This document shows, piece by piece, positions 1 through 59,480 of a DNA stretch of 64,000 bases (within the stretch, counting starts at the first letter, position 1; each line of letters opens with the position of its first letter). A program made the position numbers and the translations under genes. The DNA is from Eledone cirrhosa. Lineage: Eukaryota. The stretch spans positions 107,632,001 to 107,696,000 of the forward strand of contig OZ024741.1 in assembly GCA_964016885.1 (NCBI GenBank), in the 5' to 3' direction. Below the pieces are notes generated by a model that did not search any database, was not told the origin of the DNA, and saw only the letters and a list, made by a program, of their open reading frames with translations.

Positions 1-3000
1 CCTAACCATCCAATTCACCACTACACCTAACCATCCAATTCACCACTACACCTAACCATCTAGTTCACCACTACACCTAACCATCTAGTTCACCACTACA
101 GTTAACCATCTAGTTCACCACTACACCTAACCATCTAGTTCACCACTACACCTAACCATCTAGTTCACCACTACACCTAACCATCCAATTCACCACTACA
201 CCTAACCATCCAATTCACCACTACACCTAACCATCTAGTTCACCACTACACCTAGCCATCTAGTTCACCACTACACCTAACCATCCAATTCACCACTACA
301 CCTAACCATCTAGTTCACCACTACACCTAACCATCCAATTCACCACTACACATAACCATCTAGTTCACCACTACACCTAACCATCTAGTTCACCACTACA
401 CCTAACCATCTAGTTCACCACTACACCTAACCATTCAGTTCACCACTACACCTAACCATCTAGTTCACCACTACACCTAACGATCTAGTTCACCACTACA
501 CCTAACCATCTAGTTCACCACTACACCTAACCATCTAGTTCACCACTACACCTAACCATCTAGTTCACCACTACACCTAACGATCTAGTTCACCACTACA
601 CCTAACCATCCTGCTCACCACTACACCTAACCACCCAGTTCACCGCTACACCTAACCATCCAATTCACCATTACACCTAACCATCTAGTTCACCACTACA
701 CCTAACCATCTAGTTCACCACCACACCTAACCATCCAATTCACCATTACACCTAACCATCTAGTTCACCACTACACCTAACCATCTAGTTCACCACTACA
801 CCTAACCATCTAGTTCACCACTACACCTAACCATCCAATTCACCACTACACCTAACCATCTAGTTCACCACGGCACCTAACCATCCAATTCACCACTACA
901 CCTAACCATCCAATTCACCACCACACCTAACCATCCAATTCACCACTACACCTAACCAGCTAGTTCACCACTACACCTAACCATCTAGTTCACCACGGCA
1001 CCTAACCATCGAATTCACCACAACACCTAACCATCCAATTCACCACCACACCTAACCATCCAATTCACCACTACACCTAACCAGCTAGTTCACCACTACA
1101 CCTAACCATCTAGTTCACCACTACACCTAGCCATCTAGTTCACCACTACACCTAACCATCCAATTCACCACTACACCTAACTATCCAATTCACCACTACA
1201 CCTAAACATCTAGTTCACCACGGCACCTAACCATCCAATTAACCACTACACCTAACCATCCAATTCACCACCACACCTAACCATCCAATTCACCACTACA
1301 CCTAACCATCCAGTTCACCACTACACCTAACCATCTAGTTCACCACTACACCTAACCATCTAGTTCACCACTATACCTAACCATCCAATTCACCACTACA
1401 CCTAACCATCTAGTTCACCACTACACCTAACCATCTAGTTCACCACTACACCTAACCATCCAATTTACCACTACACCTAACCATCCAGTTCACCACTACA
1501 CCTAACCATCTAGTTCACCACTACACCTAACCATCTAGTTCACCACTACACCTAACCATCCAATTCACCACTACACCTAACCATCTAGTTCACCTCTACA
1601 CCTAACCATCTAGTTCACCACTACACCTAACCATCTAGTTCACCACCACACCTAACCATCCAGTTCACCACTAGACCTAACCATCTAGTTCACCACTACA
1701 CCTAACCATCCAATTCACCACTACACCTAACCATCTAGTTCACCACTACACCTAACCATCTAGTTCACCACTACACCTAACCATCTAGTTCACCACTACA
1801 CCTAACCATCCAATTCACCACTACACCTAACCATCCAATTCACCACTACACCCAACCATCCAATTCACCACTACACCTAACCATCCAATTCACCACCACA
1901 CCTAACCATCCAATTCACCACTACACTTAACCATCTAGTTCACCACTACACCTAACCATCTAGTTCACCACTACACCTAACCATCCAATTCACCACTACA
2001 CCTAACCATCCAATTCACCACTACACCTAACCATCCAATTCACCACCACACCTAACCATCCAATTCACCACTACACCTAACCATCTAGTTCACCACTACA
2101 CCTAACCATCTAGTTCACCACTACACCTAACCATCCAGTTCACCACTACACCTAACCATCTAGTTCACCACTACACCTAACCATCTAGTTCACCACTACA
2201 CCTAACCATCTAGTTCACAACCATACCTAACCATCCAATTCACCACTACACCTAACCATCCAGTTCACCACTACACCTAACCATCTAGTTCACCACTATA
2301 CCTAACCATCTAGTTCACCATTAAACTTAACCATCTAGTTCACCACTACACCTATCCCATCCAATTCACCACAACACCTAACCATCTAGTTCACCACTAC
2401 ACCTAACCATCTAGTTCACCACTACACCTAACCATCCAATTCACCACTACACCTAACCATCCAATTCACCACTACACCTAACCATCTAGTTCACCACTAC
2501 ACCTAACCATCTAGTTCACCACTACAGTTAACCATCTAGTTCACCACTACACCTAACCATCTAGTTCACCACTACACCTAACCATCTAGTTCACCACTAC
2601 ACCTAACCATCCAATTCACCACTACACCTAACCATCCAATTCACCACTACACCTAACCATCTAGTTCACCACTACACCTAGCCATCTAGTTCACCACTAC
2701 ACCTAACCATCCAATTCACCACTACACCTAACCATCTAGTTCACCACTACACCTAACCATCCAATTCACCACTACACATAACCATCTAGTTCACCACTAC
2801 ACCTAACCATCTAGTTCACCACTACACCTAACCATCTAGTTCACCACTACACCTAACCATTCAGTTCACCACTACACCTAACCATCTAGTTCACCACTAC
2901 ACCTAACGATCTAGTTCACCACTACACCTAACCATCTAGTTCACCACTACACCTAACCATCTAGTTCACCACTACACCTAACCATCTAGTTCACCACTAC

Positions 3001-5700
3001 ACCTAACGATCTAGTTCACCACTACACCTAACCATCCTGCTCACCACTACACCTAACCACCCAGTTCACCACTACACCTAACCATCCAATTCACCATTAC
3101 ACCTAACCATCTAGTTCACCACTACACCTAACCATCTAGTTCACCACCACACCTAACCATCCAATTCACCATTACACCTAACCATCTAGTTCACCACTAC
3201 ACCTAACCATCTAGTTCACCACTACACCTAACCATCTAGTTCACCACTACACCTAACCATCCAATTCACCACTACACCTAACCATCTAGTTCACCACGGC
3301 ACCTAACCATCCAATTCACCACTACACCTAACCATCCAATTCACCACCACACCTAACCATCCAATTCACCACTACACCTAACCAGCTAGTTCACCACTAC
3401 ACCTAACCATCTAGTTCACCACGGCACCTAACCATCGAATTCACCACAACACCTAACCATCCAATTCACCACCACACCTAACCATCCAATTCACCACTAC
3501 ACCTAACCAGCTAGTTCACCACTACACCTAACCATCTAGTTCACCACTACACCTAGCCATCTAGTTCACCACTACACCTAACCATCCAATTCACCACTAC
3601 ACCTAACTATCCAATTCACCACTACACCTAAACATCTAGTTCACCACGGCACCTAACCATCCAATTAACCACTACACCTAACCATCCAATTCACCACCAC
3701 ACCTAACCATCCAATTCACCACTACACCTAACCATCCAGTTCACCACTACACCTAACCATCTAGTTCACCACTACACCTAACCATCTAGTTCACCACTAC
3801 ACCTAACCATCCAATTCACCACTACACCTAACCATCTAGTTCACCACTACACCTAACCATCTAGTTCACCACTACACCTAACCATCCAATTTAGCACTAC
3901 ACCTAACCATCCAGTTCACCACTACACCTAACCATCTAGTTCACCACTACACCTAACCATCTAGTTCACCACTACACCTAACCATCCAATTCACCACTAC
4001 ACCTAACCATCTAGTTCACCTCTACACCTAACCATCTAGTTCACCACTACACCTAACCATCTAGTTCACCACCACACCTAACCATCCAGTTCACCACTAG
4101 ACCTAACCATCTAGTTCACCACTACACCTAACCATCCAATTCACCACTACACCTAACCATCTAGTTCACCACTACACCTAACCATCTAGTTCACCACTAC
4201 ACCTAACCATCTAGTTCACCACTACACCTAACCATCCAATTCACCACTACACCTAACCATCCAATTCACCACTACACCTAACCATCCAATTCACCACTAC
4301 ACCTAACCATCCAATTCACCACCACACCTAACCATCCAATTCACCACTACACCTAACCATCTAGTTCACCACTACACCTAACCATCTAGTTCACCACTAC
4401 ACCTAACCATCCAATTCACCACTACACCTAACCATCCAATTCACCACTACACCTAACCATCCAATTCACCACCACACCTAACCATCCAATTCACCACTAC
4501 ACCTAACCATCTAGTTCACCACTACACCTAACCATCTAGTTCACCACTACACCTAACCATCCAGTTCACCACTACACCTAACCATCTAGTTCACCACTAC
4601 ACCTAACCATCCAATTCACCACTACACCTAACCATCCAGTTCACCACTACACCTAACCATCTAGTTCACCACTACACCTAACCATCTAGTTCACCATTAC
4701 ACTTAACCATCTAGTTCACCACTACACCTAACCATCCAATTCACCACAACACCTAACCATCTAGTTCACCACTACACCTAACCATCTAGTTCACCACTAC
4801 ACCTAACCATCCAATTCACCACTACACCTAACCATCCAATTCACCACTACACCTAACCATCTAGTTCACCACTACACCTAACCATCTAGTTCACCACTAC
4901 AGTTAACCATCTAGTTCAGCACTACACCTAACCATCTAGTTCACCACTACACCTAACCATCTAGTTCACCACTACACCTAACCATCCAATTCACCACTAC
5001 ACCTAACCATCCAATTCACCACAACACCTAACCATCTAGTTCACCACTACACCTAACCATCTAGTTCACCACTACACCTAACCATCCAATTCACCACTAC
5101 ACCTAACCATCTAGTTCACCACTATACCTAACCATCTAGTTCACCACTACACCTAACCATCTAGTTCACCACTACACCTAACCATCCAATTCACCACTAC
5201 ACCTAACCATCCTGCTCACCACTACACCTAACCATCCAATTCACCACTACACCTAACCGTCCTGCTCACCACTACACCTAACCATCCTGCTCACCTCTAC
5301 ACCTAACCATCCACTTCACCACTACACCTAACCATCCAATTCACCACTACACCTAACCATCCTGCTCACCACTACACCTAACCATCCTGCTCACCACTAC
5401 ACCTAACCATCCAATTCACCACTACACCTAACCATCTAGTTCACCACTACACCTAACCATCCAATTCACCACTACACCTAACCATCCTGCTCACCACTAC
5501 ACCTAACCATCCTGCTCACCACTACACCTAACCATCCAATTCACCACTACACCTAACCATCTAGTTCACCACTACACCTAACCATCCAATTCACCACTAC
5601 ACCTCACCATCCTGCTCACCACTACACCTCACCATCCTGCTCACCACTACACCTAACCATCCTGCTCACCACTACACCTAACCATCCTGCTCACCTCTAC
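1..5700. repeat. 25-bp tandem satellite (consensus CCTAACCATCTAGTTCACCACTACA) with ~2.4-kb higher-order repeat
   Basis: Continuous 25-bp period with central variants CTAGT/CCAAT/CCAGT/CCTGC. Rare variants recur at +2426 (positions 101/2527, 255/2681, 352/2778). Confidence 0.98.
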
Positions 5701-15887: not shown

Positions 15888-15950
<63 letters not shown>

Positions 15951-15963
15951 GTATATGCATATG

Positions 15964-16044
<81 letters not shown>

Positions 16045-16057
16045 GTATATGCATATG

Positions 16058-16095
<38 letters not shown>

Positions 16096-16097
<2 letters not shown>

Positions 16098-16285
16098 AAC
16101 CAGTAAGACCCCGACAGCTGAGCTCAAGCCGTTTCGACGGCTAATTCTGGTCCAGAATTAGCCGTCGAAACGGCTTGAGCTCAGCTGTCGGGGTCTTACT
16201 GGTTCCTATTACCCACTCTACTACCTCAAGTATTGAGTACTTTGGTGCGTTATGGTCCACCTGGTTCCTTACCACATTCCCTTCG

Positions 16286-16287
<2 letters not shown>
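16096..16287 (+). mobile_element. Hairpin-plus-tail (TA)n-embedded mini-element, copy 1
   Basis: Perfect 55-bp arms around T16151, then ~80-nt tail; (TA)n on both sides; related copies at 19800, 30291, 57401. Confidence 0.9.
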
Positions 16288-16317
<30 letters not shown>

Positions 16318-18502: not shown

Positions 18503-18558
<56 letters not shown>

Positions 18559-18561
<3 letters not shown>

Positions 18562-19453
18562 ACAAGGGGGAAGAAAAAATGGCTTCATTTGTGCTTTCAA
18601 CAAATTTATTTTCTTCACAAAATCCAAAAATTATTTTTCTTAAAAAAAATTATTTTATAAATTAAGTTGTTGGTTGTTGGTTAGGTCTTAGGAGTTCTTG
18701 GTTAACGTAGGAGGTATTGTTTCGTTTTTAGAAAGACCTTTCACGCTGAGGTGCGCTTGTCAAACTGATGTGTATGTGGTGTGTTGTTCTATATATAGGG
18801 ATTTAACATGTCTGTGGTGTGGTGGGGGTTTCTTTTCTCCCCCTTTAATAAGTGCATGGCTGTAGGTGTGTTGAAAAAGTGTTCATAGCAGTAAAAAAAA
18901 AAAAAAAAAAAATAATAATAATTATCCACAAACTTGACAGGTGCGATTTGCCTGTGACCATTCTCAACACAAAAGCAATACTAAGAGCTTTTCCCCTGAA
19001 TAAAGGAATTTTTCGAGAATGACCGGGGCAGGCCGCATTTGCTACATTTCTCCCCACCCAACCCTACTCACCGTCTCAACTCATTACTGCTATGAACACT
19101 TTTTCAACACACCTACACCCATGCACTTATTAAAGGGGGAGAAAAGAACCCCCACCACACCACAGACATGTTAAATCCCTATATATAGAACAACACACCA
19201 CATACACATCAGTTTGACAAGCGCACCTCAGCGTGAAAGGTCTTTCTAAAAACGAAACAATACCTCCTACGTTAACCAAGAACTCCTAAGATCTAACCAA
19301 CAACCAACAACTTAATTTATAAAATAATTTTTTTTAAGAAAAATAATTTTTGGATTTTGTGAAGAAAATAAATTTGTTGAAAGCACAAGTGAAGCCATTT
19401 TTTCTTCCCCCCTGTCTTAATATACCTAACTGTACCAAGGATTACACACATTT

Positions 19454-19458
<5 letters not shown>
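18559..19458. mobile_element. PLE 3' end with inverted ~335-bp duplication and 3' tail, between (TA)n tracts
   Basis: 18559-18894 is the reverse complement of 19084-19418; ~40-nt extra tail on the right; TTGACAA-gcgc[acctca]gcgt-GAAA motif in each arm. Confidence 0.8.
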
Positions 19459-19517
<59 letters not shown>

Positions 19518-19799: not shown

Positions 19800-19803
<4 letters not shown>

Positions 19804-19990
19804 ATGTATGACCCCGACGGCAGAGCTCAAGCCGTCGAAACGGCTATTTCTGGACTCCAGAAATAGCTGTTGAAACGGCTTGTGCTCTGCCGTCGGGTTC
19901 ATACATTTTCCTATTACCCACTCTACTACCCTAATTATTGAGTACTCTGGTGCGTTATGGTCCATCTGGTTCCTTATCACAACTCCTTCG

Positions 19991-19992
<2 letters not shown>
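19800..19992 (+). mobile_element. Hairpin-plus-tail mini-element, copy 2
   Basis: Arms 19800-19854 and 19856-19910, same tail as copy 1; (TA)n both sides. Confidence 0.88.
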
Positions 19993-25170: not shown

Positions 25171-25208
<38 letters not shown>

Positions 25209-25305
25209 ATAATAATAAAATTGAAGACTAAAATCCAAAGAGGGCTCGATAAGGAAAATATATATCAAATATATAAGAACCGTAGAGCAAATATTTATTA
25301 AAATA

Positions 25306-25381
25306 ACAGATTAAAGTTTAAGCAAAAAATCGCTGCTTTCACCCTTAACGGGATCTTCTGAAACTAACAAAGTCAATCTGT
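25306..25381 (-). ncRNA. Hammerhead-like fold with CAGAAGA core in 3' pLTR
   Basis: acagattga..agttt-CAGAAGA-tccc[gttaa]gggt-GAAA-gca[..]tgc-TT-aaact..taatctgt. Confidence 0.65.
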
Positions 25382-26306
25382 AAACGCAATCTGTAACCGC
25401 AGAACTGGATATTTCAAAAAACGTTGCAACCGGAGGAAGACAGGAAGACGATACTTTGGTTCGTGGTAACGTTCGCTGGCAAAGAACGGGAAAAAACGAA
25501 TAATACGTCATTAATAGGAGCGGTGAAAAACAATTACGCGCAAAGACAAAACCACGTTTATGGTATAAAAGAGGTCGTAGACTAATGTTCTCTTAGATGG
25601 TGCATAGAGACGTTCTCTGGCAATGAACGAAAAAACGAAGATAATAAGTCATATGTGGAGCGTGGAGAACAATAGCACGCAAAGACAAAACCACGTAAAT
25701 GGTATAGCAGAAATCGTAGACTAAAATTCTAACTAGGAGACCAAATGAATCTCCGCTACAGAGTTAAGAACAAAGTAAATAAATACAATACAGAAGTAAT
25801 AGAAACAAATAAATACATACACGCAAACAGATACGTACATACACAACCATACGCAAAACCTTACCATGGGTATACAAAACCACGCACATATAAATATGTG
25901 TGTGTGTGTATGCTTGTGTACAAATAAATAAATAATTATATAAACGTATATAAGTAAATAAATACGTATATAACAAGCGCACACGCATACCTACATATAA
26001 ATACACGAATGTTTGGAGACGTAAGTCAACTAAAACAAGAAGTACACATATACACACACCCACCATACGTACGAACCTGCACACTCACGCGGACGCAAAA
26101 CTCCCGTATACACATAGCCAAACCCTAAATACCAGAATATGTAAAAATTATACGCTATAACAGTCAAATATACGTACGAGAAGGTATACATACCTTCACA
26201 AAACATACGGGTAATATATACTTACCTATGCAAATAAGTAAAGGAATAAACAAAACATATACTTAGCTCCCACATCAAGACGTAAAATATCCACGTATAG
26301 ATCGTG

Positions 26307-27500
26307 CTATCCGTTAGGGTATAACGTGGGGCTGTAATACAGGAAAGTTTTGTGCAATTTATGTTTACAAGCCGAAATTGCCTCAGATCTTTTGTTTAAG
26401 ATGTGGTCTGTAGCGTAGAGTATTTCCAGGGCCTCAGCGGCGCAGAGGTCACATGGTCTTTTATTTCCGTTATACGATCTAGCCCTAGCTAGGATCTCCC
26501 AGTGTAACTTATATTGGGTGTGGTTGTCTTTTAGACTCCAGATATAAGCTGAAAGTGACGTCATATTCCTTCTTAGAGGGTAACGAAAAGAATGGGTATG
26601 CATGTAGAGACGCTGCTTGAAACTATTGGCGGTTAACCCTATGTAGGCCCTACGGGACGTGGGTGTTACAACCTTACATTTGTAGACAATGTTATTAGAG
26701 AGGCATTTCCCGGAAACTGGGCAATCAGCCCGATTCCTACAATTACAGTTAGTACTAACTACAGGGTTGCACGTGTTCCTACGGCTAGGTAGTTTAGCTA
26801 AATTTGAAGCTGTGATGTTATGTGCAAGGTTAGGAGTCGTAGAGTAAGAAATTTTAATAGTATTTCTATTAAAAATGTTACTATATTTATGTGTAGGGGG
26901 AAAATGCTTCGTAATAAGGGAAAGAAAGATCTTAGCTAATGGTGTGGCCACCTCCATATTATATGGTGGGTTAAACCAACAAATGTGACGGGATCTATTT
27001 CTTCTAGGTCTATTTTCGTACTCTGTATATGCTACCTTATCGACAAATCCACTTCGAGCAAGAGCTTCATTGTAATAAGTGGAATGGTCGTTGAAAATGC
27101 GCTCGTTGGTGGAAAGACGGGAAAGCCTCAACGAAACGTTTCTTACCAGGTTCTTGGTTATGCTGGCAGGATGGTTGGAATGCTTACTTATGTAATTAAG
27201 CGTATCATTCGGCTTACTATACGGGTAATACAACCCATTCAATAAATTGAGGGTAACGTCGAGGTAATTAACGACCGAGAGATTGGCCTCAACCTGTATA
27301 GAGAGGTTGAAGCCTTTAAAGAAGGCTGTGAGTTCTTTTCTGAACCTGTCGCAAGCACGAGGTCCGCACTTAGTCATGGTCAAAAGACCATCGTCACGGT
27401 ACAAACCACCGCCCGCGTTGGGGAATTCGTCCTTGATAGAGAAAAGAAGGAAAAGGCCAATAAGATCAGTAACCTCCGCAGAGTCACTGGCGCCCATACT
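26307..27500 (-). CDS. PLE polyprotein, C-terminal part: RT (MGASDSAEV, LYRDDGL), thumb, GIY-YIG endonuclease
   Basis: CNCR..CPVSGKCL, NIVY..AYIGLT..FKQRLYMH, CDLC..E..ILNKRSEAISACKH. The first ~33 aa of the predicted ORF (27501-27599) come from the inverted pLTR. Confidence 0.93.
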   Translation of the reverse strand, partial: SMGASDSAEVTDLIGLFLLFSIKDEFPNAGGGLYRDDGLLTMTKCGPRACDRFRKELTAFFKGFNLSIQVEANLSVVNYLDVTLNLLNGLYYPYSKPNDTLNYISKHSNHPASITKNLVRNVSLRLSRLSTNERIFNDHSTYYNEALARSGFVDKVAYTEYENRPRRNRSRHICWFNPPYNMEVATPLAKIFLSLITKHFPPTHKYSNIFNRNTIKISYSTTPNLAHNITASNLAKLPSRRNTCNPVVSTNCNCRNRADCPVSGKCLSNNIVYKCKVVTPTSRRAYIGLTANSFKQRLYMHTHSFRYPLRRNMTSLSAYIWSLKDNHTQYKLHWEILARARSYNGNKRPCDLCAAEALEILYATDHILNKRSEAISACKHKLHKTFLYYSPTLYPNG

Positions 27501-27660
27501 CTTTGTCTTTGCGCGTAATTGTCTTTGCGCGTAATTGTTTTTCACCGCTCCTATTAATGACGTATTATTCGTTTTTTCCCGTTCTTTACCACGAACCAAA
27601 GTATCGTCTTCCTGTCTTCCTCCGGTTGCAACGTTTTTTGAAATATCCAGTTCTGCGTTT

Positions 27661-27736
27661 ACAGATTGACTTTGTTAGTTTCAGAAGATCCCGTTAAGGG
27701 TGAAAGCAGCGATTCTTTGCTTAAACTTTAATCTGT
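27661..27736 (+). ncRNA. Hammerhead-like fold with CAGAAGA core in inverted 5' pLTR
   Basis: Same fold as 25306; stem I AGTTT/AAACT extended by ACAGATTG/TAATCTGT. Confidence 0.65.
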
Positions 27737-27743
27737 TATTTTA

Positions 27744-27796
<53 letters not shown>

Positions 27797-30290: not shown

Positions 30291-30491
30291 GGAACGAGTA
30301 GGACCCCGACGGGTGAGCTCAAGCCGTTTCGACGGCTAATTCGGCTAATTTTTTAGTCCAGAATTAGCCGTCGAAACGGCTTGAGCTCAGCCGTCGGGGT
30401 CCTACTCGTTCCCATTACCCACTCTACTACCCTAAGTATTGAGTACTTTGGTGCGTTATGGTCCACCTGGTTCCTTACCACATTTCCTTCG

Positions 30492-30493
<2 letters not shown>
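30291..30493 (+). mobile_element. Hairpin-plus-tail mini-element, copy 3
   Basis: ggaacgagtaggacccc..ggggtcctactcgttcc arms, same tail, (TA)n both sides. Confidence 0.88.
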
Positions 30494-50858: not shown

Positions 50859-50924
<66 letters not shown>

Positions 50925-50994
50925 AAAAGAGTGAGGATCCCGACAGCTGAGGTCCGGCCGTTTGGACAGTTATATATATACACACACACACATT

Positions 50995-52385: not shown

Positions 52386-52440
52386 TATATATAGGAAAAG
52401 AGTGAGGACCCCGACGGCTGAGCTCCGGCCGTTTGGACAG

Positions 52441-57400: not shown

Positions 57401-57586
57401 GAATAGAGGCGGTAAAAACTAGTTAGACCATTACTCACCAGAGTACTCTATACTTGGGGTAGTAGAGTGAGTAATATGCGCTCCTGCCGTTTCAACGTCT
57501 AGATCCTAGCTCTTGAAATGGCCGGAGCTCAGCCGTCGGGGCCCTGAATTTTATATATATATATATATAAAATTCAGGACCCCGAC
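57401..57586 (-). mobile_element. Diverged hairpin-plus-tail mini-element, copy 4
   Basis: Reverse complement of the tail (ctctactaccccaagtatagagtactctggtg) plus gagctcagccgtcgggg arm. Confidence 0.7.
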
Positions 57587-57759
57587 TATTGGTTAGTGCT
57601 TAGTACTAAACTCCACATGTATAATTATAATTATATATAAATCATATATAAGTATAAATATATTTATTATTACTGTATATATATATATATATATATATAA
57701 TGGAAAAATTGAACAGGGACAAAACAGAGAGGCAGTACAAAAAAAGTTTATTAATTTCA

Positions 57760-58657: not shown

Positions 58658-58691
<34 letters not shown>

Positions 58692-58760
58692 AAAAAGAGA
58701 TGAAATCGAAAATGCAACTGGAGTCTTATTTTTTAAAAAAATATATATATTTATTTGGTT

Positions 58761-58798
58761 CCTTTACCGGTTTCGCAGTTCTTCTGCTTTTCAAAAGG
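58761..58798 (-). ncRNA. Minimal hammerhead with U3-A8 core
   Basis: cctt-TTGAAAA-gcag[aagaa]ctgc-GAAA-ccgg-TA-aagg. Confidence 0.8.
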
Positions 58799-59272
58799 TG
58801 AGTTGAGATGGAGGGTCTGTGGTTTTTCTCACATCTGGTTGGTCTCTGAATGTTACATGTTTTATATGGAAAAAGTGGCTCGAAATACCATGTTTTTCGA
58901 GAAGTAATTTGATTGGTTTGTCAATAATTATAATAAATTTCGCGCCAGTTCGCGTTACAATAGTTCTTCAAATAAGAGGGGGGGTTGTCACAAGTTGTTT
59001 TTTCATATATGAGTGTTTGAATTTCTTTTTACTTGAAGTAAAAAGAAATTCAAACACTCATATATGAAAAAAACAACCTGTGACAACCCCCCCTCTTATT
59101 TGAAGAACTATTGTAACGCGAACTGGCGCGAAATTTATTATAATTATTGACAAACCAATCAAATTACTTCTCGAAAAACCTGGCATTTCGAGCCACTTTT
59201 TCCATATAAAACAAGTAACATTCAGAGACCAACCAGATGTGAGAAAAACCACAGACCCTCCATCTCAACTCA

Positions 59273-59310
59273 CCTTTTGAAAAGCAGAAGAACTGCGAAA
59301 CCGGTAAAGG
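59273..59310 (+). ncRNA. Minimal hammerhead with U3-A8 core
   Basis: Identical inverted copy of 58761. Confidence 0.8.
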
Positions 59311-59441
59311 AACCAAATAAATATATATATTTAAAAAAAAAATAAGACTCCAGTTGCATTTTCGATTTCATCTCTTTTTCTTTATACTTTCACTCGTGTA
59401 GGACACCTCGGTTATTTTTCATTTTGTAAAAAAAACCTCAC

Positions 59442-59480
<39 letters not shown>

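Follow-up and report, generated by a model that had tools for sequence, protein, structure and literature searches.

The short hairpin-plus-tail element at positions 16,096 to 16,286 of the analysed stretch of Eledone cirrhosa DNA (64,000 nt, hereafter the window) is one of more than 20,000 hairpin stubs of a young Penelope-like element (PLE). Each stub consists of the terminal arm and the tail of this PLE, its hairpin probably having formed when two cDNAs copied off the capped 5′ end of its RNA were joined head to head. The family is otherwise an ordinary Hydra-clade PLE; what is new is that both arms stop at a single TTAGT site, often with an extra C.

Copies of the element in the window and in the genome

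The window element follows the order (TA)n, a 55-nt arm, 1 nt, a complementary 55-nt arm, an 80-nt tail and (TA)n, and this layout, proposed in the preliminary description, was confirmed at 16096-16286. All of the further copies listed there were recovered (19800-19991, 30291-30492 and a diverged one at 57401-57552 on the minus strand), and both half-arms exist, although they start at 50923 and 52394, one base further along than had been proposed. The three outer-arm pairs quoted as self-complementary were correct, but the arms of the copy at 19800 hold several unpaired positions. DNA folding of the window hairpin gave −80.5 kcal/mol (z = −19.3), with none of 200 shuffles equally good, and Rfam returned no match at the gathering threshold across the window. 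In the features below, parent positions are numbered from +1, the A of a TTAGT motif at position 2848 of the parent locus, L211.

15890..16095, no strand: left (TA)n target flank
16096..16150, minus strand: inverted arm, antisense of parent +58 to +4 and identical to the reverse complement of the L211 arm
16151..16206, plus strand: sense arm, parent +3 to +58, the 3′ end of the pseudo-LTR (pLTR)
16159..16193, plus strand: 3′ half of a predicted type-I hammerhead, from the fold of L211:2795-2900, comprising the helix II 3′ strand, GAAA, helix III, the GUC cleavage triplet (ending at 16189) and the helix I 3′ strand
16207..16286, plus strand: 80-nt tail, the start of the parent 5′ UTR, with loose ends into (TA)n at L211:2908 and 2988
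16287..16317, no strand: right (TA)n target flank
19800..19991, plus strand: hairpin-plus-tail copy, subfamily b
30291..30492, plus strand: hairpin-plus-tail copy of subfamily c whose apex carries a short T run
50923..50969, minus strand: single arm fragment, subfamily d type
52394..52440, minus strand: single arm fragment, subfamily d type
57401..57552, minus strand: diverged copy, subfamily d type, with a tail 85% alike over 60 nt and the outer part of the tail-side arm missing

We infer that the inverted arm at 16096..16150 is a cDNA begun at a start site at the arm end and that the 80-nt tail spans the interval between two start sites of the reverse transcriptase (RT). The apex differs in length among copies, and long ORF-bearing relatives of the subfamily b copy at 19800..19991 occur among loci L071-L100, L208 and L209.

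A DNA search of the 3.0-Gb assembly with the element returned 1,352 candidates, and all 40 scored matches were full-length at an identity of at least 99%. Among the 30 best matches that were fetched, every one had TA flanks and 23 were mutually identical, apex included, with a single tail base setting them apart from the window copy. Scanning 464 kb that included the window revealed 24 matches with several arm types and a variable apex, while a 24-mer spanning the arm end and the tail start had 23,294 exact matches in the genome and its reversed control had none.

The window also carries other repeats. Long inverted repeats (319 and 293 nt, 97%) lie in (TA)n at 58685-59450 and 18553-19460 with short one-sided extensions, and probably represent inverted ends of additional PLE families. 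Beside element ends, short local inversions were found around a (TA)n centre (window 57541-57620, L002 and L003), and positions 1-5700 hold a 25-bp satellite of 228 copies with 92% matches and a strong strand skew.

The parent Penelope-like element

The first clue to the parent was one match that lay terminally in a fragment bearing a GIY-YIG-type coding region; a search with this fragment revealed long copies that terminate in the same arm, some with the tail and some lacking it. An autonomous element ending in the same tail, which the preliminary description had suggested searching for, could accordingly be located: the intact parent of the window subfamily (a) is L211 (G000:C1:11226001-11232300), in which 2850-2985 match the arm and tail of the window copy at 135 of 136 nt. 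The tail corresponds to the first 80 nt past the upstream pLTR, 93 nt ahead of the ATG of an intact ORF (3079-5238, 719 aa). Hence the stub itself holds no ORF, as had been noted, but it belongs to an ORF-bearing element.

The parent protein carries YRDD at 348 and VIY/YIG at 591/606, and this order of an RT followed by a GIY-YIG nuclease in a single ORF classes L211 as an EN+ PLE, as does its structure, namely a pLTR produced by a partial tandem, an inverted truncated copy and a one-sided tail. The protein further contains RWR at 37 (R for K), DKT at 117, and the CxCx5C linker, CxxC and CxH motifs at 572, 670 and 698, while GxK[F/Y] is absent. A Pfam scan detected no families in the parent ORF or in the protein of a second PLE described below; homologs at E ≤ 1e-20 numbered 2,054, the best of which carries PF01541 GIY-YIG. 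Judged from these protein motifs and the (TA)n target, the parent appears to fit the Hydra clade as defined in the accessible text of PMC8557442, according to which nearly all Hydra-clade PLEs insert in (TA)n. Here, the left flank was TA-rich in 50 of the 55 copies having an inverted arm. An initial Neptune label was withdrawn, the Neptune/Nematis linker being CX2-5CxxC and that of the parent CxCx5C.

The unit measures 3,118 bp in L211, and tandem ORF matches elsewhere are spaced about 3.53 kb apart. Of the eight long subfamily b copies in which both ends could be seen, seven carried the tail at exactly one end. Identity was about 100% for all 40 scored matches to a 301-nt piece of the ORF, which indicates that the family is young. 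Because none of 25 distinct T-run loci read through, subfamilies a and c had at first seemed to be without a long parent; the long copies in our positional sample (8 of 70) refuted this. Side observations on the parent include a downstream 3′ UTR in L211 that falls about 410 bp short of what the 3.53-kb tandem period would give, a three-unit tandem at G000:C2:51278318-51285674, and a 13-codon upstream ORF (L211:2951-2992) that starts in the tail and stops just beyond it, its start and stop being kept in subfamily b (L085).

Covariation of the arms

The positional sample comprised the first 70 copies, all from the start of contig C1, and provided 52 short hairpins after L144 (tail on both sides), L151 (mis-paired with its neighbour) and L148 (long) were dropped. 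Arm identity was 98.1% within copies (42 differences over 2,253 positions) and 94.2% between copies, so that the proposed covariation of the arms withstood the comparison set for it in advance. The covariation is real, but it lies between subfamilies and is not private to single copies, as the 23 identical genomic copies illustrate. In particular, 65 of the 67 mirrored changes fall at four diagnostic subfamily sites, and the arm haplotypes agree in 48 of 51 hairpins. Mirrored subfamily sites together with unmirrored differences indicate that both arms came from one source sequence and then decayed separately. The hairpin structure of the stub is not maintained.

These counts bear on the suggestion that a structured RNA or single-stranded DNA hairpin is under selection, or that the element is a DNA element of the MITE, Crypton or Helitron type. 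The hairpin is indeed very stable; however, 42 unmirrored differences stand against only two private mirrored ones, the apex is variable and the sequence is continuous with an RT-bearing PLE, and we regard either version as scarcely credible. A MITE or fold-back DNA transposon was rejected on the same variable apex and RT-bearing parent and on the one-sided tail. An origin from a Crypton or another tyrosine-recombinase element, for which no fitting literature was found, was dropped once the PLE parent had been found.

Junctions between the arms

The 52 hairpins displayed 46 junction types, with 18 types among the 19 of subfamily a and the commonest type occurring in four of the 52; the apex is formed anew at each insertion. 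Given the identified parent and junctions that vary among copies, the PLE reading of the preliminary description, in which the structure is made at insertion, is supported. Conversely, its proposal of an undescribed minimal non-autonomous element found no support in the sense of a hairpin that copies itself. In such a family a few master hairpins would be mobilised in trans by the PLE, and the 23 copies identical even at the apex would be their progeny, though these were chosen as best matches to the query. The junction diversity in the positional sample speaks against masters, and repeated junctions are expected by chance given thousands of subfamily a copies and a stop zone of 13 nt, which leaves this explanation very improbable. 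A SINE or other fixed short master was rejected on the 46 junction types.

Both arms end at or just inside one site, the A of TTAGT. Ends within −4 to +8 accounted for 39 of 70 on the tail side and 42 of 55 on the inverted side, and eight of the 70 tail-side ends continued seamlessly into the upstream UTR of the parent. Expressed per base at risk, ends occurred at 0.007 over +50 to +9, at 0.119 over +8 to −4 and at 0.005 over −5 to −70. Contigs from sequencing runs X1 (which may be the assembly's own sample) and X4 showed the same boundary, with summed read depth stepping up about 10-fold at +1 and falling steeply past the tail. The runs of organisms B and C gave short contigs, one of them a hairpin, whose depth of 2-5 was too low for them to be used. 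TTAGT stands at the same place in subfamily d.

The bases added at this site were examined at 1,104 loci in which both arms are at +1 with 1-5 nt between them. Hand counting of the first 50 junctions gave 14 with a single C/G, which is not assignable to one arm, three with a single A/T, nine with C..G and none with G..C; the rest comprised three with a one-sided cDNA C, two with a one-sided cDNA G and 19 with A/T only. An extra C thus often follows a cDNA end at +1, as expected from copying of a cap. On the sense strand this C corresponds to an extra G, which we liken to the extra sense G reported as a mark of capped full-length L1 ends (PMC11702581). In all, 22 of the 50 junctions carry A/T only and some arms extend to −1 to −4, indicating either a ragged 5′ end or untemplated addition of A. 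Runs of A or of T up to about 30 bases at the apices of L113, L118, L103 and L184 are absent from the parent, which suggests reiterative or untemplated addition by a telomerase-related RT. Separately, in L133 and L189 an arm extends past +1 with additional bases and then continues from a distant upstream point, in the parent 3′ UTR, like an off-target template jump.

Comparing the reach of the two arms, we found that the tail-less arm extends further upstream in 15 of the 52 hairpins (in 11 by at least 10 nt) and the tail-bearing arm in 14, while their ends lie at most 2 nt apart in 23. As each arm may reach further, neither is a simple copy of the other, and arm-from-arm copying probably did not take place. 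Therefore, of the PLE-type re-templating put forward in the preliminary description, the inverted end, the 3′ tail and the origin at insertion stand, but one arm was probably not templated by the other. A related alternative is fold-back self-priming, in which the 3′ end of a single cDNA folds back and the second arm is synthesised on that same cDNA. The nearly coincident ends in 23 hairpins and the agreement of arm haplotypes would suit it, and the junction palindromes of Adineta vaga PLEs have been read in this way (PMC3846280, in its accessible part). However, the 15 hairpins with a longer tail-less arm, and L211, in which that arm exceeds the other by kilobases, would need later trimming, and C..G junctions imply two separate cDNA ends; we consider self-priming quite improbable.

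A second, Hydra-type PLE lies at 25206-27745 of the window on the minus strand, 5′-truncated and with an inverted pLTR and a tail of about 88 nt in (TA)n. A 25-mer across the junction of the second PLE family has 14,283 exact copies. Among its 30 loci, 21 read through and nine are short, four of which stop at TTAGT (L215, L219, L230 and L240), with an extra base in L230 and L240, and no TATA-like box was evident at this TTAGT. Coverage profiles of three other PLE families involved too few copies to show a boundary.

The predicted hammerhead and the nature of the +1 stop

In parent a, L211:2795-2900 folds into a three-way junction with the shape of a type-I hammerhead and a U3-A8 core, a hammerhead variant reported for PLEs (PMC4209133, in part). 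The energy of this fold is not better than that of shuffles (z only −0.5), and minimum-energy folding missed the three-way form in two of four other long copies; helix II pairing is retained in subfamily d. Rfam returned no match for the hammerhead, and in the pLTR a single chance hit. The stub contains only the 3′ half of the predicted hammerhead, the 5′ half lying upstream of +1. The RNA structure that appears conserved is this predicted hammerhead in the parent sense strand and not the stub hairpin. Classification as a non-LTR retrozyme was rejected, the stubs being inverted monomers that lack the hammerhead 5′ half. At +41 to +43, where the ribozyme is predicted to cut, copy ends were not clearly enriched (5 of 123). 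Hammerhead-like pLTR motifs with varied cores were also read by eye in other nearby PLE families (L031 on the minus strand, L052-L053 and L063-L064).

The +1 stop falls inside loop II of the predicted hammerhead and not at a stem base. TTAGT stands at the initiator position of one promoter cluster, according to the accessible part of PMC10695386. In parent a, a TATA-like box is found at −29 to −22. The promoter cluster with TTAGT at its initiator position is reportedly from Drosophila. An alternative with the same PLE origin would be that +1 is not a transcription start but an RT pause, an RNA processing site or a splice acceptor. In subfamilies a-c a pyrimidine run and AG precede +3, so that the boundary resembles a 3′ splice site, and the intron of Drosophila virilis Penelope is described as ending at its hammerhead (PMC4209133). 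Nevertheless, the copy ends include the AG and then gain a C, no constant upstream exon follows, the stop falls in a predicted loop and not at a stem base, and it recurs at the TTAGT of an unrelated PLE family. A stop of this other kind is improbable, if somewhat less so than self-priming.

Proposed mechanism

In the reading that we favour and consider likely, two cDNAs would be joined head to head. Transcription would begin within loop II of the predicted hammerhead, at the A of TTAGT. The GIY-YIG nuclease would nick both strands of the (TA)n target, and the two 3′ ends would anneal to UAU motifs in the RNA, at +58 and +138; in the parent, a TAT follows each of the two presumed RT start sites and could serve for such pairing. 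Each cDNA would then run to the cap, gaining a C (by cap copying) or runs of A, before end joining trims and fuses the two into arm, arm and tail. The step of two UAU-primed cDNAs is modelled on an anole PLE in vitro, for which the accessible text of PMC11167929 reports that both target strands are cut and extended and that RT starts at two internal sites bounding the tail. Most likely it is the full-length mRNA whose 5′ end serves as the template. Short, non-hairpin RNAs from pLTR-only copies are a possible template as well and would give the same product. Lacking any sequence upstream of +1, the stubs are probably dead ends.

A further reading, which we hold to be possible though rather unlikely, is that the hairpins are failed strand transfers and that the PLE acts like an LTR element without an LTR. 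Starting inside the upstream hammerhead, the RNA would have a 5′ end unable to self-cleave, while the whole hammerhead of the downstream pLTR would cut at +41 and leave a terminal repeat of 41 nt. RT would always start near the cap, and long copies would arise only if the strong-stop cDNA jumped to the 3′ repeat. If true, this would account for the regeneration of pseudo-LTRs and for partial tandems. The resumption of L133 and L189 in the 3′ UTR past +1 is a hint in its favour, but the remaining long copies cross +1 seamlessly, as either model allows, and the ends at +41 to +43 show no clear excess.

Comparison with known systems

The comparisons that follow refer to the accessible portions of the cited papers. 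With the EN+ PLEs of the Hydra clade (Craig et al. 2021, PMC8557442) the family shares RW[K/R], DKT, CxCx5C, CxxC and CxH, the lack of GxK[F/Y], a single ORF, a pLTR hammerhead (predicted here) and the (TA)n target. It differs in its unit length (3.1-3.5 kb, against generally <3 kb in the clade), in its tail (80 nt, against 30-40 nt in other PLEs) and in that most insertions are stubs of fixed reach, unlike the Hydra-clade PLEs described there (PMC8557442).

Inverted pLTRs and a one-sided tail are standard for PLEs (PMC3846280, PMC2377424). Penelope of D. virilis and A. vaga Pen2a share head-to-head inverted ends, a tail at one end and partial tandems, as well as a promoter and an Inr-like motif within the pLTR, and their inverted part is variably truncated, for which self-priming on an antisense template has been proposed (PMC3846280, PMC2377424). 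Here, in contrast, the ends of both arms cluster at a single site and often bear a cap-like extra base. Poseidon PAc of Anolis, studied in vitro (Frangieh et al. 2024, PMC11167929), likewise has two tail-bounding RT start sites downstream of its hammerhead, has both target strands cut and extended, and yields products whose length is set by the RNA 5′ end. It belongs to another clade, however, and neither head-to-head joining nor genomic run-off products are described in the accessible text (PMC11167929).

Twin priming of L1 also involves two primed cDNAs that are end-joined, with an extra G at capped 5′ ends, but the L1 cDNAs copy adjacent stretches from poly(A) (PMC11702581), whereas here one stretch of 58 nt would be copied by both cDNAs, starting at internal sites. 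Non-LTR retrozymes (bioRxiv 10.64898/2026.07.22.740005) are, like the stubs, short PLE-derived sequences related to pLTRs, but they form head-to-tail tandems with whole hammerheads, in contrast to inverted monomers with half a hammerhead. In the accessible part of the literature searched, we found no description of cap-delimited PLE hairpins or of a pile-up at a start site with a cap-like base.

Significance

Such stubs resemble MITEs or SINEs and are easily misfiled in annotation. The origin of the inverted ends, the one-sided tail and the pseudo-LTRs of PLEs is stated to be unresolved in the accessible parts of PMC8557442, PMC2377424 and PMC11167929, and tens of thousands of young stubs with junctions readable to the base provide a natural record of intermediates. 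Their structure suggests that two cDNAs were primed separately and that a capped start lies within the predicted ribozyme, and the stubs would likely mark the transcription start of the PLE.
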